IMG/VR virus record: IMGVR_UViG_2734482567_000007
Strand: one strand, 5' to 3'
Length of the DNA: 38,873 bases
Origin: a virus
Lineage: Duplodnaviria; Heunggongvirae; Uroviricota; Caudoviricetes
In this document: positions 3,365-38,873 of the stretch, piece by piece
Layout of the letters: every line of letters begins with the position of its first letter
How positions within the stretch are numbered: position 1 is the first letter of the stretch
The notes under the pieces: generated by a model
Databases searched by the model: none
What the model saw: only the letters and a program-made list of their open reading frames with translations
What the model was told of the DNA's origin: nothing
Made by a program: the position numbers and the translations under genes

Positions 3365-3437
3365 AATAAAAAAATAACCCGAGGGGTGACTCAGGTTATT
3401 TGAGGTTTCAGTCTCGGAGAATGCTGTCTCAAGCGAG

Positions 3438-4870: not shown

Positions 4871-4871
4871 G

Positions 4872-20375: not shown

Positions 20376-20382
20376 ACGGTGA

Positions 20383-20401
20383 GCCGGGCTTACGGCCCGG
20401 C
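20383..20401 (+). terminator. GC-rich hairpin downstream of major head gene (no U-tract; possible attenuator/stabiliser)
   Basis: GCCGGGC-TTACG-GCCCGGC perfect inverted repeat 8 bp after stop. Confidence 0.3.
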
Positions 20402-20418
20402 CCCTGCGGAGGGCAAAT

Positions 20419-21754: not shown

Positions 21755-21757
21755 CAG

Positions 21758-23538: not shown

Positions 23539-23546
23539 GGTAAGGC

Positions 23547-23912
23547 ATGAGCGGAAAACAGTATCAGGGCACGGCCACCATCCGTGTGAACGGGCAGGAG
23601 TACGACACCCTTGAGGGGGCCACGTTCTCCCCGTCCGGCTTTGAGCGTGAAGTGGTGAAAGGCGCGAAAGTTTACGGCTATCGCGAGAAACCCCGTGAGG
23701 CGACGCTGGACTGTAAATTCCCGGCGGGCGGAGAAGGTTCACCGGCTGCCGATGAAATCAACACCTGGACTGCGGTCACGATTGAGTTCGTGGCCGATAC
23801 CGGTGAAGTCCACATGATGACGAAGGCCTGGAGCAGTGAACCGGCCTCGCTTGACGGTGGTGGTGATATCTCCGCGAAGTTCGCCAGCGCCACCAGTACC
23901 CGTGTCCAGTAA
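23547..23912 (+). CDS. Tail tube protein
   Basis: 121 aa; position between sheath and chaperone/tape measure. Confidence 0.75.
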   Translation: MSGKQYQGTATIRVNGQEYDTLEGATFSPSGFEREVVKGAKVYGYREKPREATLDCKFPAGGEGSPAADEINTWTAVTIEFVADTGEVHMMTKAWSSEPASLDGGGDISAKFASATSTRVQ

Positions 23913-23926
23913 TCAGGAAAAATGTA

Positions 23927-24403
23927 ATGAGCACACGTAAGAAAAAAACGGCGGTTTCTGACGAGGCCGTGATGGAGGCTATCCGGGATGCACTTGAAGA
24001 CGGCGATCCCCGCACCGCCGGGCTGGCTGAACAACTGGCGAACGGCTATGTGGATCTGCTCGACGGTCTGCCGTTCGGGGAATCCCGTGAATACCGCGTC
24101 ACCTTCCGCGAACTGACGGCAAAAGACAGCATTGATGCGGAGAGCGAGGCCGAGCGTCTTATGGAAACCCGAAACGGTCCGGTTCTTGTGGCCTCACCGG
24201 CACTGCGCGGCATTGCGCTGCTGCGCCGTCAGATTGCCGCTGTCGGCCAGATTGAGGGGCCATTGTCTCCGCGTCAGATAGGACAGCTCAGCGAGCGCGA
24301 TCTCTCCCGACTGATGGCGGCAGTAAGCCTGCTTGATTCCGCGATGGCCGGAAAGCTGGTCGCTGAACGGGGGCGACCAGATGCAGTGCCGGGATCAGAT
24401 TGA
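23927..24403 (+). CDS. Tail assembly chaperone-like protein
   Basis: 158 aa acidic protein immediately upstream of tape measure. Confidence 0.5.
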   Translation: MSTRKKKTAVSDEAVMEAIRDALEDGDPRTAGLAEQLANGYVDLLDGLPFGESREYRVTFRELTAKDSIDAESEAERLMETRNGPVLVASPALRGIALLRRQIAAVGQIEGPLSPRQIGQLSERDLSRLMAAVSLLDSAMAGKLVAERGRPDAVPGSD

Positions 24404-24527
24404 AGAAGCCGCAATTGTGCTGGGGATGGTGACAAAAAGCGGCCCGGAGTGGGCGCTTAACCTCCCCTTATCGCAGCTTTACCGGCACTGCCGACAGACC
24501 GAAAAAATTCTCAGAACGAAGCAGTAA
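24381..24527 (+). CDS. Small ORF overlapping chaperone 3' end in another frame (separate gene or frameshift extension)
   Basis: ATG at 24381 inside longer ORF 24333-24527; overlaps chaperone 3' end in +1 frame; ends 3 bp before tape measure. Confidence 0.3.
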   Translation: MQCRDQIEEAAIVLGMVTKSGPEWALNLPLSQLYRHCRQTEKILRTKQ

Positions 24528-24530
24528 CCC

Positions 24531-26588
24531 ATGGCAAAAAACCTGAAAGCCTCCCTGATTGTCGATTTACTCGGCAATATTTCTGCCAAATCCCGCCAGT
24601 GGTCACAGGAGCTGGGGGCATTCTCCCGTTCCGGCAGGACGGGGCTGGGTGGTCTTGGAAATGCAGCACGTCGTGCCGGTCAGGAGACAGAACTTGTCGG
24701 CTCCCGTATGCAGCGAACGCTTGCCGGTGTTCGTGGCAGTATCCGCACGGTGACGTCAGATTTTGACCGCCTTCAGGGCAGCATTACCGGCACCATCGGG
24801 CGGATAAGCAACCTTTACGGGATGCTGGCGGGAGGGGCTGCGGTCTACGGGTTTAATAAAGCCTTTATCCGCCCGGCCGCAGAGATGGAGAACTATATTC
24901 TGCGTCTCAACGCCATTAATCATGGCGATACGGCAAAAACGGAAGCAGTGAAAGCCTGGGCGGTACAGAACGCCAAAGACACCACCTGGGGGCTGGCGGG
25001 GGTTATGCAGGAATACGCCTCCAGTCGCGGGTTCGGTATGAGTGACAGGGAAGCCCGTCGCTTTATTACCATGCTTCAGGATCAGGGCGGCTATCACGGC
25101 TGGTCACTGTCAGATGCACAGGGTGCGTCCCTGCAACTCAAACAGATGTTTGCCCGCCAGAGTATCCAGGCAGCGGACGCCAATATTCTGACCGGATACG
25201 GGATTAACGTTTACCAGTTGCTGGCCGATAAGCTGGGTGTAAACCAGAAGATCATCCGTGAGAAAGGCGAGAAAGGAAAACTGGGACCGGACAGCATTCG
25301 CCTGTTATTTCAGGTGATGGCCGAACAGGCAAAAGGTGCCCAGAAAAACGCCATGAATTCCTGGACGGGAATGACGTCCATGATGGGCGATGTCTGGGAC
25401 GGATTTGCCCGCGAGGTGATGGCAAAGGGACCGTTTGACAGCCTGAAAAAGAGCCTGAAAGGCTTTCTGGATTATGCTGATGCGGCACAGAAAAGCGGCT
25501 TACAGGATAAGCTGGCCACACAGACGGCCTCAGCCCTGAATCAGGGATTTGAGTATGCCAGAGACGCTGCGACCGGCTTTTACCGGGTCATTCAGAAAGT
25601 CAGGGAAACGCTTCAGGCACTGCGCGACGCCGGTTATGGCGATGCGCTGGATCGCATTGGTCAGGGTGCGCAGACCGCCGCAAAGTACCTGATGTATATG
25701 TATCTCGCCTCCCGTGCGCTGAAGGTGCTCAGGTTTGCGGGGACGGGGGCATTACGTCTCGGCGCAACCCCCTTACGCTATGGCATGGCGATGACCTCCG
25801 TGCTGACGTCGCCCTTCCGCAAACCGCAGACCACTGTACCGGGAACGCAGCCCGGACGCGCTGGCCGGTTCCTGAATTTCCTTACCGGGGTAAATCCGGC
25901 TGCCGTTCAGCCCGTGCTGGTCACCAATTGGCCTGCGGGTGGCCTGGCCTCAGGTGGCGGGGATGTGGTGGTCAGCGGTGACGGCAAAACCGTGCGCGGC
26001 CGTAAAAAACGCGGCCCCGGACGTGGACGGGGTGTCACGACCGTCGTGACTGCCGGTGAGCAACTGGCGGAGAGTGCCGGTAAACAGGGCTTCTTCGGTC
26101 GTATGATGAGCCGTGCCGGTGGTCTGCTAACGGCGGCCGGAAACCGCATGGGGCTGGGGCGTTTTGCCGGGCTGTTCCGTGGTGCCGGTCGGCTGGGTGG
26201 TGGTGCCCTGTGGGCCGGTGCCATGGCGGCTCCTGTACTGCTGGACAGCAGCGCCAGTGCAGCCGATAAAGCCGGTGCCGTGGGTTCCCTTGCCGGAAGT
26301 ATCGCCGGTGGCGCGCTGGGGGCGGCTGCCGGTCCGGTCGGGGTTGCCATTGGTTCCACGGTGGGCAGCTATCTCGGTGATTATCTGGGGGGCTGGCTGA
26401 CGCAGGCCTGGCAGAAACTGCGTGGCGGCAGTGACGAAAACGGCGGACAGGCCACCGCGAAAACCGCCGCACGGGTGGAGCTTGTTGCCCCTGAAGGCTG
26501 GCGGGCGCGCAGTATTGATGTGGATGATACCGCACAGCATGGCCTGGATGTGAACGTCTGGAACGGAGGGAACTATGGCCTCTACTGA
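24531..26588 (+). CDS. Tail tape measure protein
   Basis: 685 aa; Gly/Ala-rich C-terminal third; position after tube and chaperone. Confidence 0.8.
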   Translation: MAKNLKASLIVDLLGNISAKSRQWSQELGAFSRSGRTGLGGLGNAARRAGQETELVGSRMQRTLAGVRGSIRTVTSDFDRLQGSITGTIGRISNLYGMLAGGAAVYGFNKAFIRPAAEMENYILRLNAINHGDTAKTEAVKAWAVQNAKDTTWGLAGVMQEYASSRGFGMSDREARRFITMLQDQGGYHGWSLSDAQGASLQLKQMFARQSIQAADANILTGYGINVYQLLADKLGVNQKIIREKGEKGKLGPDSIRLLFQVMAEQAKGAQKNAMNSWTGMTSMMGDVWDGFAREVMAKGPFDSLKKSLKGFLDYADAAQKSGLQDKLATQTASALNQGFEYARDAATGFYRVIQKVRETLQALRDAGYGDALDRIGQGAQTAAKYLMYMYLASRALKVLRFAGTGALRLGATPLRYGMAMTSVLTSPFRKPQTTVPGTQPGRAGRFLNFLTGVNPAAVQPVLVTNWPAGGLASGGGDVVVSGDGKTVRGRKKRGPGRGRGVTTVVTAGEQLAESAGKQGFFGRMMSRAGGLLTAAGNRMGLGRFAGLFRGAGRLGGGALWAGAMAAPVLLDSSASAADKAGAVGSLAGSIAGGALGAAAGPVGVAIGSTVGSYLGDYLGGWLTQAWQKLRGGSDENGGQATAKTAARVELVAPEGWRARSIDVDDTAQHGLDVNVWNGGNYGLY

Positions 26589-27933
26589 CACGCCGGGGCG
26601 TGGCTCCTTTCGTGGCGTACCGTTCCTGGTTTATCAGGAGCAGCGGGAACGGGGCGGACGTAACATTGTGCGCCGTGAATACCCACTGCGTGAAAGCGGC
26701 GGTGCGGATGATCTGGGGCCAAAACTCCCGGAGTTCACATTCACGGTTCTGGTGACCGGAGACGATCTTCAGACACAGCGAAGCCGCCTGCGTGATGCGC
26801 TGCGTGCACCCGGTGCCGGTGAACTGATGCACCCGGATTACGGCACGTTAAACGTGCTGATAAACAGCTTTGAAAGCCGTTATAACGCCAGCGAGCAGGG
26901 AACGGTTGAGTTCACGATCAACGTGATCCCCGCCAGTGACGATACCGCCCCTGCGGTGGCAGAAGATACGGCAGCTGCGCTGGAGCAGAAAAGCGGCTCA
27001 GCAATGAATCAGCTGTTTAACACGCTTTCAGACGGCTGGACGGTGATTTCAGACGGTCTGCATGATGTACAGGCCATGACCGACACCATCAGCGATAAGA
27101 TTGATGCACTGGAGAATGCCGTTTCGGGGATGGGGATTGTGCAGGATATCAGTGCCTTTACGGCCAGTTTTACTGCCCTGAAAGGCAATGCCGCCGCCCT
27201 GATTAATGCGCCCCGTCGCATGGCTGAATCGCTGGCCGGAATGTTTGCCGTGCTGACCGGGCTGCCCGGCGATCCTTCCCTGTCTCTGACCGGAAAAGCC
27301 GGAACGCCGTCCGGCAGCCTGACCACAAACCGTGACAGCATGGCAGAGCAGGCCATGCCGCAGCTGTACCGCACACTTTCCTCCCTGCGTTACACCCTCA
27401 GCGAACAGGATGATCCACAGCGCCTGATTGGCCTGACGCCTGCGGCACAGAAAAATATCCGTCTGCTGCGGAGCGTGATGCAGAGTGCAACCCTGGTGTC
27501 GCAGGCACAGACGCTCGGAAAACTGCTGGATCAGGTCATCCGGCAGAATACGACGCACGTTCAGGATACTGACCGTTCGGGCGGACTGGCCTGGCTGGAA
27601 AGTTCTGCTGATGTGCAGCGTATCAACCGGGATTTGAGCGATGCCATGGAACAACAGGTGCTGGATCTGTCCGCACAGGGCTATACCGGGACTGCCCTTG
27701 CATTACGTGATGCAGGGCTTGCGCTGACAGAAGATTTAACCACACGGAGCGTGCATCTTCCCGGTGCTTTTCAGGTCATGGTTCGCACCACCGAACCGGC
27801 ACTGGTCACGCTGTACCGTGCCACCGGCAACAGCAGTCGCTGGCAGTATTTTGTCCGCAGAAACAATATCCCCGATCCGGTTTTTGTTCCGGGTGGCCGC
27901 AGCGTGGAGGTGATCAGTGAGCAGCAGGATTGA
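26575..27933 (+). CDS. DNA circularisation (Mu N-like) tail protein
   Basis: 452 aa; position after tape measure; overlapping start. Confidence 0.6.
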   Translation: MASTDTPGRGSFRGVPFLVYQEQRERGGRNIVRREYPLRESGGADDLGPKLPEFTFTVLVTGDDLQTQRSRLRDALRAPGAGELMHPDYGTLNVLINSFESRYNASEQGTVEFTINVIPASDDTAPAVAEDTAAALEQKSGSAMNQLFNTLSDGWTVISDGLHDVQAMTDTISDKIDALENAVSGMGIVQDISAFTASFTALKGNAAALINAPRRMAESLAGMFAVLTGLPGDPSLSLTGKAGTPSGSLTTNRDSMAEQAMPQLYRTLSSLRYTLSEQDDPQRLIGLTPAAQKNIRLLRSVMQSATLVSQAQTLGKLLDQVIRQNTTHVQDTDRSGGLAWLESSADVQRINRDLSDAMEQQVLDLSAQGYTGTALALRDAGLALTEDLTTRSVHLPGAFQVMVRTTEPALVTLYRATGNSSRWQYFVRRNNIPDPVFVPGGRSVEVISEQQD

Positions 27934-29041
27934 ACTGTATATCGGTGGCAGTATTTTTTCCGGCTGGCTGACGGTCAGCGTCCGTCGCTCGCTGGAGCAT
28001 CTGGCCGGGTCGTTTGAACTGGGGCTGATGCTGCCCGGTGAGCGCATCCCCTCAGCCCTGCGAACCGGTCAGTCCCTGACGCTCAGAATTAACGGGCAGA
28101 CGGTCATCAGTGGCTGGCTGGATCAGGTCAGTCAGCGGATCAGTGCAACCCGTCATCAGATCAGCATCAGCGGTCGGGATAAAACCGGCGACCTGGTGGA
28201 CTGTGCCGCCATCCATCCCGGCAGCCAGTGGCGCAACCGGACGCTGGCACAGATTGCCGCAGATTTATGTGCGCCCTTCGGGATAGCCGTGCGCTGGCAG
28301 GTTAACGACGACACGGCTGCACGCCCCTTCAGCTCTTTTACGCTGGAAAACTCAGAAACCGTGGCGGATGCGCTGACCCGTGCTGCCCGGCATCGCGGGG
28401 TGCTGGTGACCAGTAATGCTGACGGCGATCTGGTGTTCACCCAGGCAGGAAGCCAGCAGACGGACAGACTGGTGCTGGGAGATAACCTGCTTGATGCCGA
28501 TTACAACACGGACTGGCGAGGACGATACAGCGAATACCGTGTCCGGGGACACGGGCGCGGTGGTGGCAAACGGGGAGACAGCGAATCCGCCGCCCGTCTG
28601 GCAGCACCTGTGGGCGTCATCAGTGATGAGCAGATCGGCCGCTACCGGTCGAAAATCATCCTCGCCGATCAACAGACAGACACCACCGGTGCACGGCAGC
28701 GTGCCCTGCGTGAAATGCGCCGTGCGATTGCCCGTTCAGAACGGTTTTCTGCCACCGTGCGTGGCTGGTTCCGGGATGATGGCCGGTTATGGGATGTCAA
28801 TCTGCTGACCGGTGTTTCAGCCCTGCGTTTCGGTATAGAACAGACTGAACTGCTGGTCTGTCAGGTGGAGTTTTTACTTGATGAACATAACGGGGAAGTC
28901 ACCCGGCTGGTACTGGCACCGCGTGACGGCTTTATCGTTCCGGCAGAGCCGGACAGTAAGGGCCGGGGTGGTTCCGGTGACGATGTTGATGCCTTTATTC
29001 GCCAGCAGATGAAAAAACAGGGGATCAGCTTTGATGAATGA
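27917..29041 (+). CDS. Baseplate hub / tail protein (Mu P-like)
   Basis: 374 aa; position; overlapping start. Confidence 0.65.
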   Translation: MSSRIELYIGGSIFSGWLTVSVRRSLEHLAGSFELGLMLPGERIPSALRTGQSLTLRINGQTVISGWLDQVSQRISATRHQISISGRDKTGDLVDCAAIHPGSQWRNRTLAQIAADLCAPFGIAVRWQVNDDTAARPFSSFTLENSETVADALTRAARHRGVLVTSNADGDLVFTQAGSQQTDRLVLGDNLLDADYNTDWRGRYSEYRVRGHGRGGGKRGDSESAARLAAPVGVISDEQIGRYRSKIILADQQTDTTGARQRALREMRRAIARSERFSATVRGWFRDDGRLWDVNLLTGVSALRFGIEQTELLVCQVEFLLDEHNGEVTRLVLAPRDGFIVPAEPDSKGRGGSGDDVDAFIRQQMKKQGISFDE

Positions 29042-29645
29042 TGAAGTGTTCAGCCGCCTGATTGCCCCGGTAACGCGCGGTATTCGCCTGTTGTTTGGCC
29101 GGGGCGTTCTGACCGGCACACATGACGAACTGAAAATGCAGAATGTGCAGCTCACCGGCATGGACGGCGAAACCTTTGATGATGTGGAGCGTCCCCAGCA
29201 GTACGGGCAGATCAGCGTTCCCCTGCCGGGTGCGGAAACCTTTTTTGCCTGTCTGGGCGGACAGCGGGATCAGACTGTGGTGCTTGTGGTGGAAGACCGG
29301 CGCAGCCGCCCGACCGGACTCACAGCCGGAGATACGGGGGTGTATCACCATGAGGGGCACCGGATACGGTTAACAAAGGATGGTCGCATTATTGTGACAT
29401 GCAAAATGCTGGAGATTTACGCCGATGAGGGGATGCGGGTGGATACGCCGGAGGCCACCTTTACGGGCAATGTGACGGTGGATAAAAACCTGCATGTTAA
29501 GGGTAATTTCGTGCTTGATGGTACAGGTAAATCAGACGGGCTGTTCACGATGTCTGATGCCGTTATTGCCGGGATCACCTATTCCGGCCATGTGCATCAG
29601 GATAACGGCAAAGGCAGTAAGACAGGAGCGCCGGAGAATGGCTGA
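29031..29645 (+). CDS. Baseplate spike/assembly protein (gpV-like)
   Basis: 204 aa; position; overlapping start. Confidence 0.6.
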   Translation: MMNDEVFSRLIAPVTRGIRLLFGRGVLTGTHDELKMQNVQLTGMDGETFDDVERPQQYGQISVPLPGAETFFACLGGQRDQTVVLVVEDRRSRPTGLTAGDTGVYHHEGHRIRLTKDGRIIVTCKMLEIYADEGMRVDTPEATFTGNVTVDKNLHVKGNFVLDGTGKSDGLFTMSDAVIAGITYSGHVHQDNGKGSKTGAPENG

Positions 29646-30075
29646 TATTGCAATTGTATGGGATCAGGGGTGCGGTTCGCTGCAACTGAACGGTGCCGAC
29701 TTGCTGACGGATGACAGTCTGCTGACGGCCGTTCTGATTTCGCTGTTTACTGACCGCCGGGCGCTGGCATCGGATGAAATCCCTGACGGTACGCGCGACC
29801 GCCGGGGATGGTGGGGAGACAGTTTTCGCCCGCGCCCCATTGGCTCCCGTCTGTGGCTTCTCAGCCGGGAAAAAACGCTGGCCTCGGTGATAAGCCGTGC
29901 CCGTGCTTACGCGGATGAGGCGCTGGGCTGGCTCAGTCAGGATGGCGTGGCGTCATCCGTGGTCTGTCATGCAGAACGTGTGGGACACGCGCGGCTGGCG
30001 CTTTCGGTGCGCATAACCCTGCCTGATGGTTCAGTGAGGCCCATGATTTTTTATGCTGATCTTAAGGGGGAGTAA
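29638..30075 (+). CDS. Baseplate wedge protein (gpW/gp25-like)
   Basis: ATG at 29638 overlapping previous stop (ATGGCTGA); 145 aa; position before J-like gene. Confidence 0.6.
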   Translation: MADIAIVWDQGCGSLQLNGADLLTDDSLLTAVLISLFTDRRALASDEIPDGTRDRRGWWGDSFRPRPIGSRLWLLSREKTLASVISRARAYADEALGWLSQDGVASSVVCHAERVGHARLALSVRITLPDGSVRPMIFYADLKGE

Positions 30076-31157
30076 TGCCTTATCAGCCTTTACCGCTGGC
30101 ACAGTTAATCACGCAGACACAGCAGGATATCAGCCAGCGCCTGCCCGGCTCGCAGCCGGGTGTGAATGAAACCACCCTGAATGCCATTGCTTACGCTCAG
30201 GCAGGGTTATCTGCTCAGGAGCATGAGCATCTGGCCTGGATTGCGCGTCAGATCATCCCGACCGAAGCCGATGAAGCCGAACTGCTGAAACACTGTGCAT
30301 TCTGGGGCGTCATGCGTAAGCCTGCCTCTCGGGGGGACGGGCCGGTTCAGCTGATGCTGACCACGGATGCGGGGATCAAGGAAGGTGTGCTTCTCCAGCG
30401 AAGTGATGGCGTGGTTTACCGTATCACCACCTCCCTGACCGGTAAGGCCGGTACGCTGAATGTCAGTGTGGAAGCCGAAAGTGCCGGTCGTGCGGGGAAT
30501 GCCCCGGCAGGGACAAAACTGACATTTATCACACCGCAGGCGGGGATCAACCAGACGGCCACGGTGACCGGAACGGGGATCACCGGTGGTGCGGATGTGG
30601 AAACCGTGCCGGAGCTGCTTTCCCGTCTGGTTTTCCGGGTGCAGAATCCACCGTCCGGCGGCACGCAGTATGATTTTGAACGCTGGGCGCGTGAAGTGCC
30701 GGGCGTGACGCGGGCATGGTGCCGCCCGGAATGGCCGCAGGCGGGCAGCGTGGGGGTAACGTTTGTTCAGGATAATAACCCGGATATTTTCCCCGGTGAC
30801 GGTGATGTTCAGCGGGTGGCGGATTATATCCGCAGTCATGATGATCCGGCGACCGGCCAGCCTGTCGGACAGCCTCTGGGGCCGACGGTGACCGTGTTTA
30901 AACTGACCAATAAGCCGGTGCCCTTCAGCATCAGGATCATCCCGAAAACACCGGAGAATCAGGCGGCCGTAAAACAGGCGCTGACCGACCTGTTGTATAA
31001 CGAATCCCGGCCCGGCGGTCTGGTTCTGCCGTCGTCTTTCTGGCGGGCGGTGGCAGGGGTGAAAAATCTGGAGGATTTTGAAGTGCGCAGTCCGCTGACG
31101 TCAGTTCAGGCGGGAGACAGTGAGCTGCTGACGGTAGGAGAAATCACATGGCTGTAA
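30075..31157 (+). CDS. Baseplate J-like protein
   Basis: 360 aa; position; overlapping start. Confidence 0.65.
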   Translation: MPYQPLPLAQLITQTQQDISQRLPGSQPGVNETTLNAIAYAQAGLSAQEHEHLAWIARQIIPTEADEAELLKHCAFWGVMRKPASRGDGPVQLMLTTDAGIKEGVLLQRSDGVVYRITTSLTGKAGTLNVSVEAESAGRAGNAPAGTKLTFITPQAGINQTATVTGTGITGGADVETVPELLSRLVFRVQNPPSGGTQYDFERWAREVPGVTRAWCRPEWPQAGSVGVTFVQDNNPDIFPGDGDVQRVADYIRSHDDPATGQPVGQPLGPTVTVFKLTNKPVPFSIRIIPKTPENQAAVKQALTDLLYNESRPGGLVLPSSFWRAVAGVKNLEDFEVRSPLTSVQAGDSELLTVGEITWL

Positions 31158-31708
31158 CCCTGACCCCGCATCAGCGCGCCCTGTTGCAGTTACTGCCTGA
31201 CGGGCTGGCATGGGACAAGCGTCCGTCATCCGTACTGGCATCATTATGTCTGGGCCTCAGTCATTCGACAGCGCGTGTATCCTGGACGGGTAAACAGCTG
31301 CTTGCCGAGCGTTTCCCTGACACGTCGCGCCTGCTGCTGGAAGACTGGGAGCGTTATCTCGGGCTTCCCGAGTGTGATATGGCCGGAGCCACCCTCACGG
31401 AGCGACAGCGTTATGCCGGAAATAAATACCGGATGAAGCCCTCGCTGAACCGTGAATTTTATATCCGGTTTGCGGCGGAGTTTGGTTATCAGATTGACAT
31501 TCAGCCCTCACCGGATTCGCAGTGGGTCAGTATTGTCACGATTAACAGTGAAACCGGCTACCGGAATATGAATGTGCTGGATGATATTCTCACGCCGCTG
31601 CGTATTTATGAAGGCGGTGCGCTGGAATGTATTCTGAACCGTTATAAGCCTGCATGGCAGACGTTTATTTACGTTTATGCAAACAGCCATGAAGAGGAGA
31701 CTATTTAA
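31148..31708 (+). CDS. Baseplate/tail-fibre-adaptor protein (Mu gp48-like)
   Basis: 186 aa; immediately upstream of fibre gene. Confidence 0.55.
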   Translation: MAVTLTPHQRALLQLLPDGLAWDKRPSSVLASLCLGLSHSTARVSWTGKQLLAERFPDTSRLLLEDWERYLGLPECDMAGATLTERQRYAGNKYRMKPSLNREFYIRFAAEFGYQIDIQPSPDSQWVSIVTINSETGYRNMNVLDDILTPLRIYEGGALECILNRYKPAWQTFIYVYANSHEEETI

Positions 31709-32153
31709 TGTTTCATGTTGATAATAATTCCGGCGTGGCGAATATGCCTGCGCTGGCACCGGCGCAGAGTAATACCACCACCTGGTTTACCGAAGGTGAC
31801 GGACAAAAAGGTATCAGCTGGATTGGTCAGGACTGGCTGAATATTCTCCAGGCCGAACTGCTGAATATTCTGGCTGAAGCCAGTATTCAGCCGGATAAGG
31901 CGCAGTTAAACCAGCTTACGCTGTCCATTAAAGCCATTATCGCTGCGAATGCCTTTTCCCGGAAAAATAACCTGAAAGAAATTGCTGATGCCGGTGCGGA
32001 GGCCCAGCGTCTGGCCCGTGGTTATCTTGGTCTGGGGACGCTTGCCACAAAAAACAGTCTTGGTCCCGCTGACGTTAATGCCCTGGCGAAGGATCAGAAT
32101 CTCGCCGACCTGGAGAATAAGGGAACCGCCCGTAATAATCTGGATGTTTACAG
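31708..32153 (+). CDS. Tail-fibre protein, N-terminal constant part (3' truncated by N gap)
   Basis: ORF runs into the N run; N-terminus typical of Mu/P2-type fibre anchor region. Confidence 0.65.
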
Positions 32154-32403
32154 NNNNNNNNNNNNNNNNNNNNNNNNNNNNNNNNNNNNNNNNNNNNNNN
32201 NNNNNNNNNNNNNNNNNNNNNNNNNNNNNNNNNNNNNNNNNNNNNNNNNNNNNNNNNNNNNNNNNNNNNNNNNNNNNNNNNNNNNNNNNNNNNNNNNNNN
32301 NNNNNNNNNNNNNNNNNNNNNNNNNNNNNNNNNNNNNNNNNNNNNNNNNNNNNNNNNNNNNNNNNNNNNNNNNNNNNNNNNNNNNNNNNNNNNNNNNNNN
32401 NNN
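32154..32403. other. Assembly gap (250 N)
   Basis: Uninterrupted run of N. Confidence 0.99.
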
Positions 32404-32427
32404 GGCTGTCTATAGCGCGGCGATTTT

Positions 32428-32493
32428 TTTGATACCGATTTGCATTTCATTTGATACCGCTGAAAAACGCCGATACGCAACTTATTTGATACT
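32428..32493 (+). repeat. Right-end transposase-binding-type repeats (TTTGATACCG at 32428-32437 and 32450-32459, TTTGATACT at 32485-32493)
   Basis: Same motif as at left end, immediately downstream of mom stop on the minus strand and abutting the N gap. Confidence 0.6.
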
Positions 32494-32538
32494 AAATCGG
32501 CGCTTTTCTTTTGAGTTTTAGAATGAGTTTTTAAGCGT

Positions 32539-33276
32539 TCATTCACTCTCTTTCAAACCAGTTTTAACTGTTTGTGGTTTTGGGTAAGGCTGGACTTTGA
32601 ATAGCTTTGTGTTAAGGCGTTTTCTGGCTCTCTTGTCCAGAAACCGGATGTAACGAAACTGACGGAATTTATGAACACTGGCTCTGTCGATATTAGCCCG
32701 CAGATGTTCACCTCGCTGTCCTCCTCGTTTGATTGCATTCTTGCAAATCTCGTGATACCACTCGCCATCAAGTTCATAGAATGTTGTTTCATGACTGCCT
32801 ACATAATCAAAATTGCTTGCCTGGTACACGACACCAAGACAGCCACAACGCTCATCTGCAAACGACTGAACCCACTGCACCTGCGGATAAAGTTGTCTGA
32901 TTAGTTTGAGCGCGTAACTGATTGCCCTTGATTCGGAGTTTCTCGGCATACAGTCATGCAGCCATAACCGGTTAAGCTCCATATATTCGCGGTTCTGCGT
33001 GCCAGTTACGACGCGTGCACCATTGTTTGGATTAAGGGCATAACCCCATTGCATTACGCCAACCAGCTCCCGTTCTGAAAATATGCCCAGATGAAGGTAG
33101 GAATTATTTACGAAACGATGGCTGTAATGTTTATTGACGACGACCAGCCGGGCCAGCCAGCAACTTATTGTCTCAACCCGTAACTCACGGGAGCCATAAC
33201 CGACGATATTGTCGTTATAGTGAATAAGTTCAGGCGTGCTGATGATACGGGATGTAACTTGCTTTCTGTTCCCCAC
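32539..33276 (-). CDS. mom: Mom-like DNA modification protein; start inferred as GTG at 33276 inside 3' end of com
   Basis: Last gene before the phage end, immediately downstream of and overlapping a Com-like zinc-finger gene; mom frame has no ATG near com stop; GTG at 33276 preceded by AAGGA (9-nt spacing). Confidence 0.55.
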
Positions 33277-33430
33277 GACAGGATTTCCTTGTGTATGTGG
33301 GGTGCTCTGTGGCGCTCTGAGATGTGATTTGATTGAGGGTTTTACAGCGCGGACATTTAACTTCCAGATAACTGAAGCTGGCTCGTGCCAGTAGCTTGTT
33401 ACAATGTCGGCACCGTATGTTTCGATACAT
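33230..33430 (-). CDS. com: Com-like zinc-finger translational activator of mom
   Basis: 66 aa from ATG 33430 (GGAGG upstream); CRHCNKLL...CPRCK zinc-finger resembling Mu Com; overlaps mom start. Confidence 0.7.
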
Positions 33431-33570
33431 GGCCGCATAACCTCCTGCTTTGTTGTTGATATCTTTATCACTCAATCGATCGACAAAAACGATCGATTTG
33501 ATTTATTTAATTGATACAACAAATAACACGAAATGTCATTAGCGAAAATTTATGAGTTTGATCACTAATT
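33431..33570 (-). promoter_or_regulatory. com-mom upstream regulatory region with clustered GATC sites
   Basis: GATC at 33478-33481 and 33491-33494, each within a CGATCG palindrome, and a third at 33560-33563, in an AT-rich region upstream of com. Confidence 0.45.
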
Positions 33571-33686
33571 TTAAACGGTGCTGTAACGCATAAGTGCTGA
33601 ATGATTGTACATTTGAATACCGCAAAGCAAACAAATCAACTAATTTATAGAAGTCAATTGGTTAATTGCCAGCGTAAGAGGCTGCT

Positions 33687-33980
33687 ATGGACAATCATGT
33701 AACGACGAGAAATCGAAAAATGATTGAAAATGCGGAAATCTATAATGATTATTTTTCCGATTATTCAGATGCCTGCAAATACAGTTCGAGTGCGGGAGAG
33801 TTCATATGCTTCAACTTTTTTATTAAATCTTATGTTTTTCCTCCACAGCAAGAAGATGGAGGTGTGCCACCTCCTGAAATCACTTTGCACCGTATAGCCT
33901 CCGTCTCAATGATGGAGCAACAGGCTAATGAGCTGTATAGCATTCTGGGAACGATTCTACAAAAGCGTGAATCGGACTAA
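33687..33980 (+). CDS. Hypothetical AT-rich protein, divergent from com-mom
   Basis: 97 aa; RBS TAAGAGG 5 nt before ATG; markedly AT-rich relative to phage core. Confidence 0.45.
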   Translation: MDNHVTTRNRKMIENAEIYNDYFSDYSDACKYSSSAGEFICFNFFIKSYVFPPQQEDGGVPPPEITLHRIASVSMMEQQANELYSILGTILQKRESD

Positions 33981-34062
33981 TGATACCGGTTCATTTGCCT
34001 GCCCGGATGGGGAAGCAGGATTGACTGCTCCATAAGCAGCTATATTTCTGAATACGAAATAC

Positions 34063-34142
34063 TATCCAGCGATTACATATGGCTGGATAGCGGCAAAGAT
34101 GTTTTCATTAGTGTCAAACCGGCAGAGGACACCACCGGTTTG
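34063..34142. other. Two palindromic elements between convergent genes (TATCCAGC/GCTGGATA and CAAACCGG/CCGGTTTG)
   Basis: Perfect 8-bp inverted repeats at 34063-34089 and 34115-34142; the second ends 5 bp before the stop of the 84-aa gene. Confidence 0.35.
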
Positions 34143-34147
34143 TATTG

Positions 34148-34402
34148 TTACATCATGGTACTGTCAGTTCCGGGCTGAGCCGGGTCTGGTTGCTCTGGCT
34201 GCGCGTCGGTTTTCGGCTCATTATCAGCATCACTGGCCGCAACTGCTGGCCCAATAAGTTTTGCCAGCACTTCATCAACGTAAGTGTCGATTTGTGCCTC
34301 AAAATCCTTGCGGACCTGCGCTTTCAGCAACTTATTTACTTCACCGGAATACAGTGCCTGTTTTACCAGGTCTTCAGTGACGGTGCCTTTAATTTCTGGC
34401 AT
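34148..34402 (-). CDS. Hypothetical acidic protein
   Basis: 84 aa; strong RBS AGGAGG 6 nt before ATG; Asp/Glu/Pro-rich C-terminus. Confidence 0.5.
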   Translation of the reverse strand: MPEIKGTVTEDLVKQALYSGEVNKLLKAQVRKDFEAQIDTYVDEVLAKLIGPAVAASDADNEPKTDAQPEQPDPAQPGTDSTMM

Positions 34403-34437
34403 GTATATCCTCCTTATGCGGGAATAAAGCCCTGCAA

Positions 34438-34620
34438 TCAGGGCTGGGTCGGGTCTTTTGGGAGCGGAGTTACCTGCGCTGTTTTACTGAGTTTTTCAGC
34501 TGCTGCGTCCTCAATTTTGCGGCGAACATAATTTCTGATGGCCTTATAACCACCACTCACCAGATATAACGCACATACTGCCGTGCAGAAATACAATAAA
34601 ATAAGCTGTAAAAATGTCAT
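34438..34620 (-). CDS. 60-aa single-transmembrane peptide (candidate small membrane toxin or lysis/exclusion peptide)
   Basis: ATG at 34620 preceded by GGGAGGG; N-terminal hydrophobic helix MTFLQLILLYFCTAVCALYLVSGGY followed by basic/charged tail. Confidence 0.45.
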   Translation of the reverse strand: MTFLQLILLYFCTAVCALYLVSGGYKAIRNYVRRKIEDAAAEKLSKTAQVTPLPKDPTQP

Positions 34621-34635
34621 TATCCCTCCCAATTA

Positions 34636-34758
34636 TTGACATGGTGTTGACACCGGTAATATCTGTTAGGTAAAAAGGTGCACTGCATTTTTTGCTTTGG
34701 ATATAACGATCTTTTTGCCGCCGGTTTCTTGTTTTCCCTTACCGGCGGCATTTTTTTA
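34636..34758 (+). ncRNA. Candidate small RNA transcription unit antisense to the leader of the 60-aa peptide gene
   Basis: TTGACA (34636-34641), 15-bp spacer, TAATAT (34657-34662), then intrinsic terminator GCCGCCGGT...ACCGGCGGC + TTTTTTT (34717-34757); no plus-strand protein gene to serve. Confidence 0.35.
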
Positions 34759-34764
34759 TCCTGC

Positions 34765-36819
34765 TTACGCGTTATTCACTTCCACCACGATACTGTCAAT
34801 CAGTACCGGGTAAGTCGCATTTTTAGTGATATCGGTCACGCGCAACTTGTCTGCCGTAAACGTGCCGACCGGAGACTGCGACAGCATGAATGGTGTCCCG
34901 TCCTTACCATCAATGACCGGCGTCACCTCAATACTGTTGTTACCGGCAAAACGGAAGCCCAGCGTATGCCATTCGTTATTAAATGCGCCGAATGACCCCA
35001 GCTTCGTGTTCTGCGCCGTGTTTCCTTTGTGATACATCACGTTAAGGTCTGTGGCATCGCTCTGTACGTAGAACGATGCCAGCAGGTTATGACCGGCATT
35101 TCCTTCCAGAGTAACCCCTTGCGGCAGGGCAGAAACCGGCCAGTACAGCGCCAGTGCGTACTGATTAGCCGTAAGCGCGCCATCGAGTTTAAAACGACAA
35201 CTGACAAGACCACCTTTACCCAGCAGGTCCGCACCATTACCAGCATCATGCTCAAGGTACCAGGGGGCTCTTCCTGTTTCCTTGGTCAGTTTCATTGCCT
35301 TACCCCCGCTGGCTCCGGCATCATCCACGATTTGAGCCTTGCCACCTCCGGCAGCCCAACCCTGTGGTGTCAACCGTCCTTCAGACTCAGATGCCCGGTA
35401 AGCAAATAGCGTACTCATCGTCGTGGTGTCTGCGGGTGGCGTGGACGGTTTTGATGGTGTATCAGGTGACGGCTTCTCATCCGGTGGTGTCACGGTCTGC
35501 CCACGCATCAGTTCAGCCGTGCGCCCTGCATGGAGCATAATAGCTGAGGCCAGACGGTCTGAAATGACGCCCCTGCGTGCCCATGAGCTGAAATGGCTGT
35601 CACGCTGTGTCGAAACAAAACTGCCCTGGGTTCGGGATGCTGCACCGTAATACCCGACAGCCACAATATCCGGGTCTTCCGCCGGAGCATTCGTTGGCGT
35701 GCTCTGTCCATTCTCATCCGTCAGGAACGGTACAAAGAAAATTTTCTGTGCTTCCTTGCCTTTGTAGCCACCGTATACTGCCTCATATTTATCGGTGCCA
35801 GCGTTTTTCCAGTAATACGTGGTATCACCGCAAATCCACGGCACCGTGGTGGCATTTCCACTCACGCACTGCGCAGCAAGCGGAGCCAGGTCAGTTCTGA
35901 ACTGCTGAACCATGGCCGTGAATAAACTATTATGCTGCTGGCTTCCTGAGGCAAGGTCTGCCTCTCCCTGCATCCAGACCACAGCCAGAAGTTTGTTTTT
36001 CGGGTTTTTCGCCAGCGCGACTTTGGTGCGGCTTACCAGGTCCTGATACAGAGGTTTACCGGCCCCCCAGCGTGAAGAATCAGCGGAAGCACCGCTGGCC
36101 TCACTGAATGAGCCGTCGGCTCCAGTGGTGAATGCTGACCCGCCACGACAACAGGGCACCAGAAGTATCCCGGCATTCTGTGGGATATAGGGAAGCAGTT
36201 TTTTGGCAATATGCAACCCCTGACCGACAGTCCCGTACTGGCCTTTTGCCAGATCAGCTTTCGGGTGGTTTATCCCGCTCATATCCTGAACATCATGCAG
36301 GCAGTGGTCTGCCGGAATGATGTCGTTGTATGTACACGACGTACCGTTGGGCGTTACCGTACTGCGGCGTGCCAGTTGCTTAATGCGTGGGTCCGGGCGG
36401 TCAAACGAATCCGGTAACGGCAGCCCCTCGCCGTAGGCCATGCCATTTGACTGACCCGCGAGAATGACAACAAAGTAATATTCCGGCTCTGAACTGCTGC
36501 CATTCGTGCTACCGGAAGGCCCGGCGTTATCCGGTGCATTCCAGTCGGAGGGCGTGAGCGTTCCGGCCACGTCAGATGTGATTGGAATGATGCCAGTCAC
36601 GCCTGAACTGGTGATTTCTGCACTGGGATTACCGGATACCGGCATTACCCATAATGGCTCTTTCGTGCTGAAGCGGATCACGCAGTCTGCGAAGGTGATC
36701 CCCCCTTTATTACCCGAAGGGCGGAAAGGGCTTTCAATAAATGCCACCGTGCCACCGGCAACCTTGACTGAAAACTCTCCGGGCATGGCGGAGAGCATTT
36801 TCCACTTGGAGTCTGACAT
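34765..36819 (-). CDS. SGNH/sialate-O-acetylesterase-like carbohydrate esterase with C-terminal lectin-like domain (NanS-p-like)
   Basis: 684 aa; YYFVVILAGQSNGMAYGEG esterase motif; Pro/Ser/Thr-rich linker; C-terminal beta-rich domain; inserted between gin and com. Confidence 0.5.
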   Translation of the reverse strand: MSDSKWKMLSAMPGEFSVKVAGGTVAFIESPFRPSGNKGGITFADCVIRFSTKEPLWVMPVSGNPSAEITSSGVTGIIPITSDVAGTLTPSDWNAPDNAGPSGSTNGSSSEPEYYFVVILAGQSNGMAYGEGLPLPDSFDRPDPRIKQLARRSTVTPNGTSCTYNDIIPADHCLHDVQDMSGINHPKADLAKGQYGTVGQGLHIAKKLLPYIPQNAGILLVPCCRGGSAFTTGADGSFSEASGASADSSRWGAGKPLYQDLVSRTKVALAKNPKNKLLAVVWMQGEADLASGSQQHNSLFTAMVQQFRTDLAPLAAQCVSGNATTVPWICGDTTYYWKNAGTDKYEAVYGGYKGKEAQKIFFVPFLTDENGQSTPTNAPAEDPDIVAVGYYGAASRTQGSFVSTQRDSHFSSWARRGVISDRLASAIMLHAGRTAELMRGQTVTPPDEKPSPDTPSKPSTPPADTTTMSTLFAYRASESEGRLTPQGWAAGGGKAQIVDDAGASGGKAMKLTKETGRAPWYLEHDAGNGADLLGKGGLVSCRFKLDGALTANQYALALYWPVSALPQGVTLEGNAGHNLLASFYVQSDATDLNVMYHKGNTAQNTKLGSFGAFNNEWHTLGFRFAGNNSIEVTPVIDGKDGTPFMLSQSPVGTFTADKLRVTDITKNATYPVLIDSIVVEVNNA

Positions 36820-36904
36820 CGTCTTTTCTGCCTGTTTCTGAATTAAACAGAGTCAGAATAGCGACCGCTGAAAAATATGTGTTTTGCGGAAATTCAAAAA
36901 AGCG

Positions 36905-37477
36905 TCACGGTACTTTTGGTGACGGAGCTGGTGAGGCAGGAAAATAACGATAAAGGGTGGAAAGGCCAATATCAAATATCAGTGCGATTTGTTTACGGGA
37001 CTCGCCATTAGCCAGCAAACGGGCGATTTGCTCCCGCTCTTTCTCTGTCAGTTTCTGAGGTCTGCCGCCATGACGCCCCTGAGCACGGGCAGCAGCAAGA
37101 CCCGCGCGTGTACGTTCAATAATGAGTTCCCGCTCCATTTCCGCCAGCGCGCCCATTATATGGAAAAAGAAACGTCCCATGGGAGTGGATGTATCAATAT
37201 TGTCCGTAATGCTGCGGAAGTTAACGCCGCGTTGCCGGAGTTCTTCTGTTAAAAGGACAAGGTGCTGCATACTGCGTCCAAGGCGATCCAGTTTCCAGAC
37301 CAGCAGGGTATCCCCTGGCCGGAGTCGCTTTAATGCGCGTTTAAGTCCGGGACGCTCCCTTGTCTTACCGCTTATTCTGTCTTCGAAAAACAGCTCACAT
37401 CCTGCACATTCCAGCGCATTTCTTTGTAGCGCCGTATTCTGGTCATTTGTTGACACCCTGATATACCCAATCAGCAT
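36905..37477 (-). CDS. gin: Gin/Hin/Pin/Cin-family serine DNA invertase
   Basis: 190 aa; near-identical N-terminus to Mu Gin (MLIGYIRVSTNDQNT...GDTLLVWKLDRLGRSM...GRFFFHIMGALAEMERELIIERT); adjacent to gix site. Confidence 0.9.
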   Translation of the reverse strand: MLIGYIRVSTNDQNTALQRNALECAGCELFFEDRISGKTRERPGLKRALKRLRPGDTLLVWKLDRLGRSMQHLVLLTEELRQRGVNFRSITDNIDTSTPMGRFFFHIMGALAEMERELIIERTRAGLAAARAQGRHGGRPQKLTEKEREQIARLLANGESRKQIALIFDIGLSTLYRYFPASPAPSPKVP

Positions 37478-37523
37478 ACGATTTCCTTATTATAAAAAGC
37501 CGGAATTGTCGCATGAGGAATAA

Positions 37524-37907
37524 AACAGAGTTAATCCTGGCTTTCCTGAAAACCTCGGTTTACGGGAAACGGTAAACAGGGCGGCGAATGCCCTGCCATC
37601 GGACGGCACCGCCGTTGCCGCGAACAGGCTGGCAAATGCCCACACAATTAATGGTGTTCCCTTTGACGGGACGCAGGATATCACTATCTCATCAGGAACA
37701 GTAACCGCCATAAGACTGGGGTCGGTGACCGCACATATGCCCGGAACATGGGAAAGCTGGGATCTGAATCTGGGGGGCGGCAATGTTCTTACCGGAATTA
37801 AAGTACAGGATGTCGGTAAGAATACGGCAGATAACGTCGGCGGCGTGTATTACCGGCCGTTGCAGTATCTGTTAAATGGAGCATGGGTGACGGCTGCAAG
37901 TATATAA
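37524..37907 (+). CDS. Alternative tail-fibre C-terminal cassette (no start codon; expressed only after inversion)
   Basis: Open frame from IR into variable region ending at 37907; shares ...NGVPFDGTQDI with the minus-strand cassette and then diverges. Confidence 0.55.
   Translation, partial: NRVNPGFPENLGLRETVNRAANALPSDGTAVAANRLANAHTINGVPFDGTQDITISSGTVTAIRLGSVTAHMPGTWESWDLNLGGGNVLTGIKVQDVGKNTADNVGGVYYRPLQYLLNGAWVTAASI
37543..37568. other. gix-type inversion crossover site (left)
   Basis: TTCCTGAAAACCTCGGTTTACGGGAA, matching the Mu gix/hix core AAAACCTCGGTTTAC with imperfect dyad symmetry; 65 bp from gin start. Confidence 0.7.
37555..37624 (+). repeat. Left inverted repeat of invertible segment
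   Basis: 70 bp with one mismatch to the reverse complement of 38804-38873; encodes the shared fibre segment ...RAANALPSDGTAVAAN... Confidence 0.8.
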
Positions 37908-37938
37908 TGATATTCAGAAGGCCTTCCGGCCTTCTTTA

Positions 37939-38460
37939 TTACTGTGGCTGCTCAGGCCATTTAATGGCGTTAAATTCAGCTTCTGTTTTAATGGCGGGTA
38001 GTTCCATTTTCTTCACCTGACTGATGTATGCCATCCATTGGGTAAGTGCTGCTCTGTCTTCATCGCTGATGGTGCCCAGTTGTAGCTCCGTTCTCCAGTC
38101 ATTAATTTTTTCATATGCCTGATTAAGATATGACTGGCGCATTGCTTCCAGTTTTCTTGCGTAGTTAACCGGAATACGGGAGATTATGCCATTATCAAAC
38201 TTCCAGTTTCCTGAAATATCCGTGCCTTCAGGGAGTTCATCGACCTCAACCACAGAAAACCCCGCAGGATACAGCGCCGAGGCGTCCTGTGATATTGAGC
38301 AGATAACGCCGCTGTCAGGTGTTATGCAAAGTTTATATTTTTTGGTGAATAATGGCAGGGATTCGTAGAAATCCTTACCATCTTCACTCTGGAAATACTG
38401 AACATTATTACCATATGGCATATTTTCAGGATAATAACGGGTTATATTTTTTAGTTCCAT
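37939..38460 (-). CDS. Tail-fibre assembly (chaperone) protein, U/Tfa family
   Basis: 173 aa; GGAGG RBS; immediately downstream of minus-strand fibre cassette; typical Tfa C-terminal region. Confidence 0.75.
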   Translation of the reverse strand: MELKNITRYYPENMPYGNNVQYFQSEDGKDFYESLPLFTKKYKLCITPDSGVICSISQDASALYPAGFSVVEVDELPEGTDISGNWKFDNGIISRIPVNYARKLEAMRQSYLNQAYEKINDWRTELQLGTISDEDRAALTQWMAYISQVKKMELPAIKTEAEFNAIKWPEQPQ

Positions 38461-38511
38461 AAAATCCTCCTGGAAATAAATCTGTTTTAAAATATATTAT
38501 TTACTGACTAT

Positions 38512-38873
38512 TTATAACTGAGATACCGTAATCCATGTACCTCCGACTAATTTTTGCAGGGGTCTGAATGCTATAAAATCGTTTGAAGCATCAACTTTAC
38601 TGTCAATCTGCAGGCCTGCCATAACATTACCGTACGCAGAGTAATATGCCCCACCGTACATTACCTGCCTGTTCTCTGCTCCCAGCCTGATATCCTGGAT
38701 ATATCGGGAATCCGCATCCTGCTGTGTTATACCAGAAGTGATGTTTATGTCCTGCGTCCCGTCAAAGGGAACCCCATTAATATTTCTTGGGGTGGCGAGT
38801 CTATTCGCGGCAACGGCGGTGCCGTCCGATGGCAGAGCATTCGCCGCCCTGTTTACCGTTTCCCGTAAACCGA
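38512..38873 (-). CDS. Tail-fibre variable C-terminal cassette (5' truncated at window edge / gix site)
   Basis: Open frame from window end to TAA at 38512-38514; begins with IR-encoded ...NRAANALPSDGTAVAAN then variable region; followed by assembly gene. Confidence 0.6.
   Translation of the reverse strand, partial: GLRETVNRAANALPSDGTAVAANRLATPRNINGVPFDGTQDINITSGITQQDADSRYIQDIRLGAENRQVMYGGAYYSAYGNVMAGLQIDSKVDASNDFIAFRPLQKLVGGTWITVSQL
38804..38873 (-). repeat. Right inverted repeat of invertible segment, ending in right gix half-site (38860-38873)
   Basis: Reverse complement matches 37555-37624; TTCCCGTAAACC + GA at the very end of the window is the right half and centre of a gix site. Confidence 0.8.

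Follow-up and report, generated by a model that had tools for sequence, protein, structure and literature searches.

A Compact Invertible Segment with Two Tail-Fiber Tips and a Single Assembly Gene in a Mu-Like Prophage of Escherichia coli

Introduction

Switches in which DNA inversion exchanges the tips of phage tail fibers are textbook systems, and the Sp18 family of Mu-like prophages has been sequenced since 2001. In the G segment of Mu, which is inverted by the invertase Gin, the two alternative fiber ends are each co-transcribed with an assembly gene of their own (S-U / U'-S'). In Sp18, from E. coli O157:H7 Sakai, the region for host specificity was noted to be invertible and to carry genes "distinct from those of Mu," and Sp18 DNA is efficiently packaged (Asadulghani et al. 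2009, PMC2669165). We analyzed a stretch of 38,873 nt (IMG/VR record IMGVR_UViG_2734482567_000007, here called the window), which is a Mu-like prophage with transposase genes near its left end followed by tail and baseplate genes on the plus strand. Near its right end are two alternative fiber-tip cassettes and one tail-fiber assembly gene, tfa. With good confidence, the region as a whole is best explained as the switch that sets host specificity in this prophage, a Mu-like member of the Sp18-like family of E. coli. Switches of this kind are well known. The notable part is the minimal design, with tip cassettes of about 90 amino acids arranged around one chaperone gene. None of the papers searched describes or discusses an invertible segment with a single tfa gene.

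Results and Discussion

Architecture of the invertible segment

A reading of the window made from its letters alone (the sequence-only reading) had proposed a G-like invertible segment in which two short alternative fiber C termini face each other between inverted repeats, with one assembly gene and with Gin encoded just outside. The gin-proximal crossover site, gixR, lies where that reading had placed it (37543 to 37568). It is a 26-bp element, TTCCTGAAAACC TC GGTTTACGGGAA, with its TC core at 37555 and 37556. The same site is present in relatives L001 to L009, and it agrees at 21 of 26 positions with gixR of Mu. The inverted repeat is also present, but its length had been put at 70 nt, whereas the arms (37555 to 37633 and 38795 to 38873) measure 79 nt at 95% complementarity. 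The left arm encodes the sequence GLRETVNRAANALPSDGTAVAANRLA shared by the two cassettes, and the last 14 nt of the right arm are the inner half-site of the second crossover site, gixL, together with its core (GA, equivalent to TC); the last base of the window belongs to this central dinucleotide. A second inverted block of 50 nt (84%) pairs positions 37647 to 37696 with 38732 to 38781, and a 33-nt core of the repeat has exactly two copies in the window versus none in 100 shuffles. The complete gixL, TTATCGATAACG TC GGTTTACGGGAA, is found in relatives. Both full gix sites, each with a TC core and in inverted orientation, are present in relatives that are 99 to 100% identical to the window.

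Between the sites are the two facing cassettes, which share GLRETVNRAANALPSDGTAVAANRLA...NGVPFDGTQDI and then diverge, as had been predicted. Cassette A (37557 to 37907, plus strand; 116 codons and a stop) is an alternative fiber C terminus with a Mu-type distal tip that is silent in the window and faces away from tfa. Cassette B (38871 to 38512, minus strand; 119 codons and a stop) would be the expressed tip once the genes are placed in their true order (see below), and it is followed by tfa. The only tail-fiber assembly gene, tfa (37939 to 38460, minus strand), encodes 173 amino acids, is co-oriented with cassette B, and matches Pfam Caudo_TAP (E=5e-19) and phrog_136, "tail fiber assembly protein" (E=5e-56). 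Its stop codon is 31 nt from that of cassette A. Just outside the segment is an intact gin gene (36905 to 37477, minus strand) for a 190-aa serine DNA invertase (Pfam Resolvase, E=2e-51; HTH_7, E=5e-15) that is 72% identical to Mu Gin and keeps the catalytic YxRVSTxDQ motif. The locus has three features of the serine-invertase class, namely recombinase domains, paired inverted 26-bp sites with the same 2-bp core, and inversion that can be seen in genomes.

Both orientations are found in E. coli genomes

The same prophage is present at 99 to 100% identity in complete E. coli genomes, in which the gene order is gp47, gp48, S, the segment, gin, a DUF6645 protein gene, DUF1378, DUF826, com, mom, and the right end. 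All of these genes are on one strand except tfa, one cassette inside the segment, and a short reverse open reading frame (ORF) before com. In strain JE86-ST05, the annotated 293-aa fiber consists of Sc, the constant part of the tail-fiber protein S, followed by cassette A, and its gene is convergent with tfa (the A-ON state). The 296-aa fiber of strain DLI.5a consists of Sc and cassette B, with tfa following (B-ON). Strains FORC_029 and NCCP 13983 carry the prophage at the same insertion site with flanks of 12,147 and 11,062 nt (23.2 kb) that have 0 mismatches, and the 1,319-bp segment between the TC cores of one is the exact reverse complement of that in the other. The inversion breakpoints in genomes L091 and L092 fall at the gix cores.

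A junction search located the full-length A-ON junction in 24 complete genomes, with cassette A joined in frame to Sc in L002, L091, and 22 others, and the full-length B-ON junction in 6. Among all matching records, 17 (A-ON) and 5 (B-ON) were at least 99% identical. For the Sp18-type junctions of O157, 186 genomes had tfa opposed to the expressed fiber versus 16 with the other orientation. Several genomes hold two prophage copies in opposite states, and one Tfa protein accession is shared by an O157 relative (L007) and an O111 relative (L008), which have it in opposite orientations. The switch, a Gin-type inversion of the fiber tip, is active in nature. Exact inversion between isolates with identical flanks, together with both junction types rather than a single orientation in many complete genomes, bears out the G-like invertible segment that had been predicted.

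In the proposed mechanism, the true order would be baseplate genes, Sc (about 178 codons), gixL, B, tfa, a hairpin, inverted A, gixR, gin, cargo genes, com, mom, and the right end. Gin would act on the TC cores of the two 26-bp gix sites, and recombination there would invert 1,319 bp. In the B-ON state, Sc is fused in frame to tip B, giving the 296-aa fiber, and tfa would be co-transcribed. In the A-ON state, Sc is fused in frame to tip A, giving the 293-aa fiber, and tfa lies on the opposite strand behind the hairpin. The switch exchanges the fiber tip and hence probably the host range, and we infer that the two states would confer different receptor specificities, as G(+) and G(-) do in Mu.

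The gixR site of the O157 type (L007, about 5040 to 5070) has a 1-nt deletion in its outer half relative to the O111 relative L008 (ATCCCTGAAACC versus TCCCTGAAAACC), and its inner half is also altered (GGTTTACGGGAT). The skew of 186 to 16 between orientations in the O157 type could reflect either clonal descent or impaired inversion.

One assembly gene serves as the center of the design

Each of ten relatives (L001 to L010; 81 to 100% identical, among them O157, O111, Shiga toxin-producing E. coli, mouse, and marmot strains) has exactly one tfa gene. In all ten, this gene points the same way as the B-position cassette, and in none does it share the direction of the A-position one. Past the window end, complete relatives have no second tfa; Sc is found directly beyond gixL instead. 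The single assembly gene on the strand of one cassette, as the sequence-only reading had described it, therefore extends to the window and all ten relatives, and the comparison indicates that the one-tfa layout is a design and not an assembly artifact. The minimal design is kept in at least 230 complete E. coli genomes, most O157:H7 genomes included. It had also been proposed that the second cassette would be expressed without a co-oriented chaperone gene, and the A-ON genomes agree, with a full 293-aa fiber gene annotated by the Prokaryotic Genome Annotation Pipeline (PGAP) that is convergent with tfa.

Tfa is homologous to Mu U, the chaperone that is seen on the fiber tip in PDB 5YVQ (5yvq_B, E=4e-16). 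Residues 1 to 90 are 72 to 96% identical among relatives with strongly different tips, and the C-terminal half is mosaic (45 to 91% identity among relatives). Similarly, U and U' of Mu are 70% identical in the N-terminal domain, though identity between the two Mu tips is only 39%. It is this domain of Tfa that reportedly binds the fiber tip, and the tips have a common C-terminal motif, RPxQ..xxGxWxT. This pattern fits a generalist chaperone that would recognize the conserved end of the tip. A Tfa shared by both tips is plausible at the protein level because the fiber-binding domain is conserved though the tips differ.

In other phages, a confirmed or likely tfa gene is found 0 to 17 nt downstream of fiber genes with this tip type. 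The downstream gene in POP15 is annotated as a putative tail fiber assembly protein; in a P1-like record, generic "tail fibers protein" genes occupy the tfa position, and in TH18 an unannotated ORF of 194 aa is found there. Because a tfa-like gene adjoins the tip in these phages, this tip type would normally travel with a chaperone. Counts of tfa in other genera were made with an iterated Tfa hidden Markov model.

Mouse isolates M1, M3, and M18 have lost cassette B and gin and have kept Sc-A and an intact, anti-oriented tfa, so they would be naturally locked A-ON prophages. In this deletion variant (L010, E. coli M3, 4000 to 4870; also M1 and M18), a remnant of a B-type tip is found upstream of tfa.

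Both cassettes encode short Mu-type tips

Sc matches Mu S over residues 1 to 198 (phmmer: 5yvq_A, E=9e-46; 8ju3_A, E=9e-47). Alignment of the cassettes with Sv and S'v, a check that the sequence-only reading had suggested, placed the last ~70 residues of both cassettes on the distal tips of Mu S and S'. They follow the pattern RLG ... G.V.TG ... RPxQ..ING.W, with the G, R, Q, G, and W columns invariant across the two cassettes, four relatives, and the Mu tips, and the B tip of one relative is nearly that of Mu S. On the strength of the aligned motifs, each of the two tips is a homologue of the Mu S and S' distal tips. The variable parts had been called unusually short, and the cassettes do correspond to little more than that distal domain. 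They keep the last fiber repeat (NGVPFDGTQDI) and a distal tip domain of ~65 aa, which is the part bound by Mu Tfa (U). The segment is 1.3 kb and not 3.0 kb as in Mu because the cassettes are Mu Sv/S'v minus a shaft of ~250 aa. In structures 9cuy and 9mjn, distant fibers with a similar tip, the tip is unresolved and there is no information on a chaperone.

The ratio of nonsynonymous to synonymous substitution (dN/dS) for A-position tips was 0.06 to 0.32 when six diverged copies of the same length were compared in pairs; their synonymous sites were close to saturated. A-position tips diversify as intact ORFs, as genuine receptor-binding tips do, and both tips are under purifying selection. The plus-strand cassette, for which degeneracy had been considered, is intact by this measure. 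Tip A of the window has 10 residues fewer (around ...MTQSTADGRY...) than the A-position tips of relatives, and it is perfectly conserved among the genomes that have it.

One degenerate prophage copy (L003, the second copy in E. coli AST46, 3242 to 5123) has a frameshifted gin and cassettes that are hybrid and frameshifted. The cassette in its ON position begins as tip A and partway along changes frame into sequence of tip B, a pattern that suggests the two tips have recombined. In PGAP annotations (L001, L002, and L091), the silent cassette appears as "phage tail protein, incomplete, missing N-terminus" or as split "hypothetical proteins," and a spurious antisense ORF is called at window positions 37490 to 37783. 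Invertible fiber cassettes are systematically misannotated as pseudogenes.

Sequences that might govern tfa and gin expression

A GC-rich hairpin, AGAAGGCC-TTCC-GGCCTTCT (37916 to 37935, plus strand; a consensus match only), lies between the convergent cassette A and tfa. Its T-rich tail is present only in the A direction, and the O111 relative has a T-run on the tfa side. Transcription in the B-ON state could run through B and tfa into gixR and gin in the sense direction, and transcription in the A-ON state would stop. Because the T-rich tail is found only in the A direction, the supply of Gin is possibly asymmetric between the two states.

The stop codon of cassette B and the start of tfa are separated by an AT-rich spacer of 51 nt (38461 to 38511, minus strand) with a strong AGGAGG ribosome-binding site. 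Across the Sp18-like family, this spacer is of three unrelated types of 51, 79, and 86 to 120 nt, compared with 2 nt in Mu. Since the types are unrelated, there would be no conserved regulatory element upstream of tfa, and a position-weight scan found no promoter element shared among the three. When that scan was extended to the gin-side region reading into the segment and to the repeat arms reading inward, all scores were within the 42nd to 97th percentile of random phage windows. Two candidates for a late promoter were rejected. The only CCCC upstream of tfa, sought for its likeness to the C-rich motif that precedes the lys and I genes of this phage, consists of RPLQ codons and is absent in relatives. 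No convincing late-promoter box corresponding to the Mu C-protein box (TTAT-N6-ATAA) was found upstream of tfa.

In the Mu and Hin systems, the recombinational enhancer sits inside the invertase gene. Among 31 gin homologues, synonymous diversity was 0.43 to 0.60 in codons 1 to 30 (window 37388 to 37477) versus 0.75 to 0.87 downstream. The low diversity is compatible with an embedded recombinational enhancer and also with constraint on the start of translation.

Assembly of the window

The order of genes in the window differs from that in complete genomes. The 5' part of S (31708 to 32154, plus strand) contains 149 of the ~178 codons of Sc and is identical to the start of the 293- and 296-aa S proteins of relatives L002 and L001. 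It is cut by a run of 249 N (32155 to 32403) that interrupts the fiber gene and joins two assembly pieces. The right piece, which is the whole right arm from 32404 to 38873 with mom, com, the cargo genes, gin, and the switch, is in reverse orientation relative to the complete genomes. In a blastn comparison with the B-ON genome L092, window positions 20098 to 32153 were collinear, and 32411 to 33525 and 34116 to 38873 matched as the reverse complement, ending exactly at the gixL core inside S. The left-arm match ends at window position 32153, which is L092 position 12064, and the gixL core is at L092 position 12148. The window lacks 83 nt of Sc and the outer half of gixL.

The prophage proper begins at window position 67 (TATAACC...), and its right end is ...GCGCTATA. 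Sequence matching the 66-nt left flank occurs at 10,699 places across 3,268 E. coli genomes, plasmids included, and this flank is probably an insertion sequence. The 7 nt past the right end (32404 to 32410, GACAGCC) start with GACA, which also ends the left flank. The shared GACA looks like a target-site duplication and thus would imply an ordinary insertion. We read the window as two contigs of a draft assembly, broken where repeats occur (the multicopy flank and the gix inverted repeat) and then put together with one of them turned the wrong way; breaks near the ends of the prophage would be expected because the left flank is multicopy. Turned around, the right arm matches the order of L092 as far as the gixL core, and the state of the window in true order would then be B-ON, that is, Sc, gixL, B, tfa, hairpin, inverted A, gixR, and gin.

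In draft genomes of Enterobacterales (L015, L017, L020, L022, L024, L026, L029, L033, L034, and others), a contig end is found 70 to 130 nt upstream of a gin homologue. Assemblies appear to break routinely at the gix inverted repeat, and such breaks would be a cheap genome-wide marker of invertible segments.

Weighing the explanations

The chances are about even that one Tfa serves both tips and that tfa is expressed independently of orientation from a putative promoter. A number of points weigh against a host-specificity switch that works in this way. The window itself holds the second gix site only as a half, Sc is on another scaffold piece, and the full picture of the switch is drawn from relatives that are 99 to 100% identical. 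The orientation counts, by which tip A, facing away from tfa, is the expressed tip in most assemblies (24 genomes against 6, and 186 against 16 for the Sp18 type), are confounded by clonal relatedness and make no statement on switching rates. The domain E-values between the tips and the Mu tips are weak (0.55 and 12), so that homology leans on the aligned conserved motifs. The gin-gixR intergenic region has no conserved element between the subfamilies compared. A scan for sigma-70 consensus sites from 36800 to 38873 found no site on the tfa strand upstream of tfa, with 5 sites overall versus 4.0 expected. In a position-weight scan of the three spacer types, scores for the 160-nt stretch preceding tfa fell between the 60th and 97th percentile of random phage windows.

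It is possible, though somewhat unlikely, that Tfa serves tip B only and that tip A folds without a dedicated chaperone or with one from the host or another prophage, in which case inversion would determine both which tip is used and whether the fiber bears a Tfa cap. The invariable pairing of tfa with the B-position and never the A-position cassette in 10 of 10 relatives would be expected in that case, as would a hairpin and T-rich tail that end the Sc-A transcript before tfa and the failure of the promoter scans to find a promoter for tfa in the A-ON state. The retention of Sc-A in mouse strains M1, M3, and M18 after the loss of B and gin points in the same direction, but their tfa, which is anti-oriented, is likewise intact. 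A parallel is offered by the single-tfa prophages of the P2 type, whose tfa-less cassette is a Gp53-like knob, although a need for the chaperone that is specific to one tip is plausible only for one of them, L013. Also against this reading, tips A and B share homology with one another and with the two Mu tips, for each of which there is a separate Tfa, and other phages with this tip type carry a confirmed or likely tfa immediately downstream. A related proposal, which we consider unlikely, is that inversion toggles two layers, the terminal tip domain and whether Tfa is made. If so, B-ON virions would be Tfa capped and A-ON fibers would be uncapped and fold without the chaperone, and the locus would provide a host-range switch from one chaperone gene together with a natural Tfa-independent Mu-type tip. 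In Mu, Tfa is said to stay on the fiber tip and itself to bind lipopolysaccharide.

It is quite improbable that A-ON is a noninfective or fiber-defective state, which would make the segment an ON/OFF switch of infectivity instead of a choice between hosts. The anti-orientation of tfa in A-ON, the lack of a promoter in the scans, and the normal coupling of this tip type to a downstream tfa could all be accommodated, but strong purifying selection on A-position tips is hard to explain without a working fiber, and these tips diversify as intact ORFs. That cassette A is a decaying remnant and the segment a relic past switching is scarcely credible. The 10 residues absent from tip A and the frameshifted gin in degenerate copies L001 and L003 might suggest decay, but gin is intact in the window, and the relic reading is ruled out by the exact inversion between isolates, by the 24 complete genomes in which cassette A is a full-length expressed tip, and by the dN/dS values. 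It is highly improbable that the source genome itself has a large inversion of the right arm (32404 to 38873), such as one with gixL and some distant site as its endpoints. The arm does terminate precisely on the gixL core, the expected breakpoint of a Gin-mediated event; however, the junction is occupied by the run of 249 N, the flanking GACA points to an ordinary insertion, the multicopy left flank explains contig breaks at the prophage ends, and many draft genomes break 70 to 130 nt upstream of gin homologues, at the gix repeat.

Other genes of the right arm

A block of cargo genes lies between gin and com/mom, a position at which Mu has no such block. It consists of a gene for a 684-aa protein with a sialate O-acetylesterase (SASA) domain and DUF6645 (34765 to 36819, minus strand), followed by DUF1378 and DUF826 genes (34438 to 34632 and 34148 to 34402, minus strand). 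This block resembles the NanS-p cassette beside the lysis genes of Shiga toxin phages. Homologues of com and mom overlap and adjoin the right end (32539 to 33475, minus strand), and four GATC motifs lie around the start of com. The DNA modification module of Mu would be conserved, since both homologues are present.

Significance

The layout is already present in many sequenced genomes, where it has gone unanalyzed. It overturns nothing, but it offers a small, clean natural system for questions about Tfa. The chaperone gene is anti-oriented to the expressed fiber in most assemblies, which raises a concrete and easily tested question. If Tfa serves both tips, it might be a generalist that is expressed independently of the late operon; alternatively, some Mu-type tips might do without Tfa. 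The design is also relevant to the engineering of phage and tailocin host range by tip swapping, for which a 90-aa cassette would be a very small exchangeable specificity module.

Comparison with known systems

The Mu G segment occupies the same position, after gp47 and gp48 and before gin, com, and mom, and has homologous Sc, Gin (72%), Tfa (U), and distal tip domains. In both systems the 26-bp gix site has its 2-bp core at the same point of the S reading frame, and inversion swaps C termini on Sc. Of the features of the Mu S/U module, Sc, the tips, and Tfa are all present here, and one assembly gene per cassette is absent from the window and the ten relatives. Mu has a segment of 3.0 kb, variable parts of ~330 aa, and two assembly genes (U and U', each co-transcribed with its own fiber), whereas the segment described here is 1.32 kb, with variable parts of ~90 aa that comprise the tip only and with one tfa. 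Because there is one tfa instead of two, the chaperone gene is on the opposite strand in one state. The locus also differs from Mu in the distance from tip stop to tfa (51 to 120 nt here versus 2 nt) and in the NanS-p-like esterase cassette between gin and com.

Other serine invertases, C/Cin of P1 and P/Pin of e14, likewise swap the C termini of tail fibers. Prophage e14 carries tfaE and tfaP. The P1-like record MH422554 has a tip that is 52% identical to tip A, but two convergent genes are in the tfa position, one per cassette.

A search for single-tfa segments elsewhere, made with a Gin profile against one genome per species, found them in P2-like prophages of Siccibacter turicensis (L013, 4196 to 5927), Enterobacter soli (L036, 4662 to 5939), and Mixta theicola (L057, 4638 to 5937). 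Each has a segment of 1.25 to 1.7 kb, bounded by inverted repeats beside a Gin homologue. Inside are two cassettes that face each other and a single Caudo_TAP gene, which is co-oriented with the gin-proximal cassette as assembled. They differ in having a P2-type H fiber backbone (Phage_tail_fib N terminus) and tips that are Gp53-like knobs or collar/gp12-like domains, whereas both tips here are of the Tfa-binding Mu type. Their tfa-less cassette is a Gp53-like knob; the tfa-linked one is of that type too in L036 and L057 and is collar/gp12-like in L013. A tip-specific need for the chaperone is an easy explanation for L013 because its two tips differ in type. The single-chaperone layout thus recurs outside Mu-like phages.

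Sp18 and its relatives belong to the same family and share the order Sc, gixL, tip, tfa, tip, gixR, gin, and the DUF6645 protein gene, with one tfa. The window lineage has the whole Sp18-like synteny (gp47-gp48-S-[tip/tfa/tip]-gin-DUF6645-DUF1378-DUF826-com-mom), and nucleotide identity over the regions compared is 92 to 100% to window-type genomes and about 76 to 89% to O157-type relatives. The window differs from Sp18 in the 10-aa deletion in tip A, in a tip B that is unrelated beyond the shared framework, and in the C-terminal half of tfa and the spacer of its lineage, both of which are of other types.

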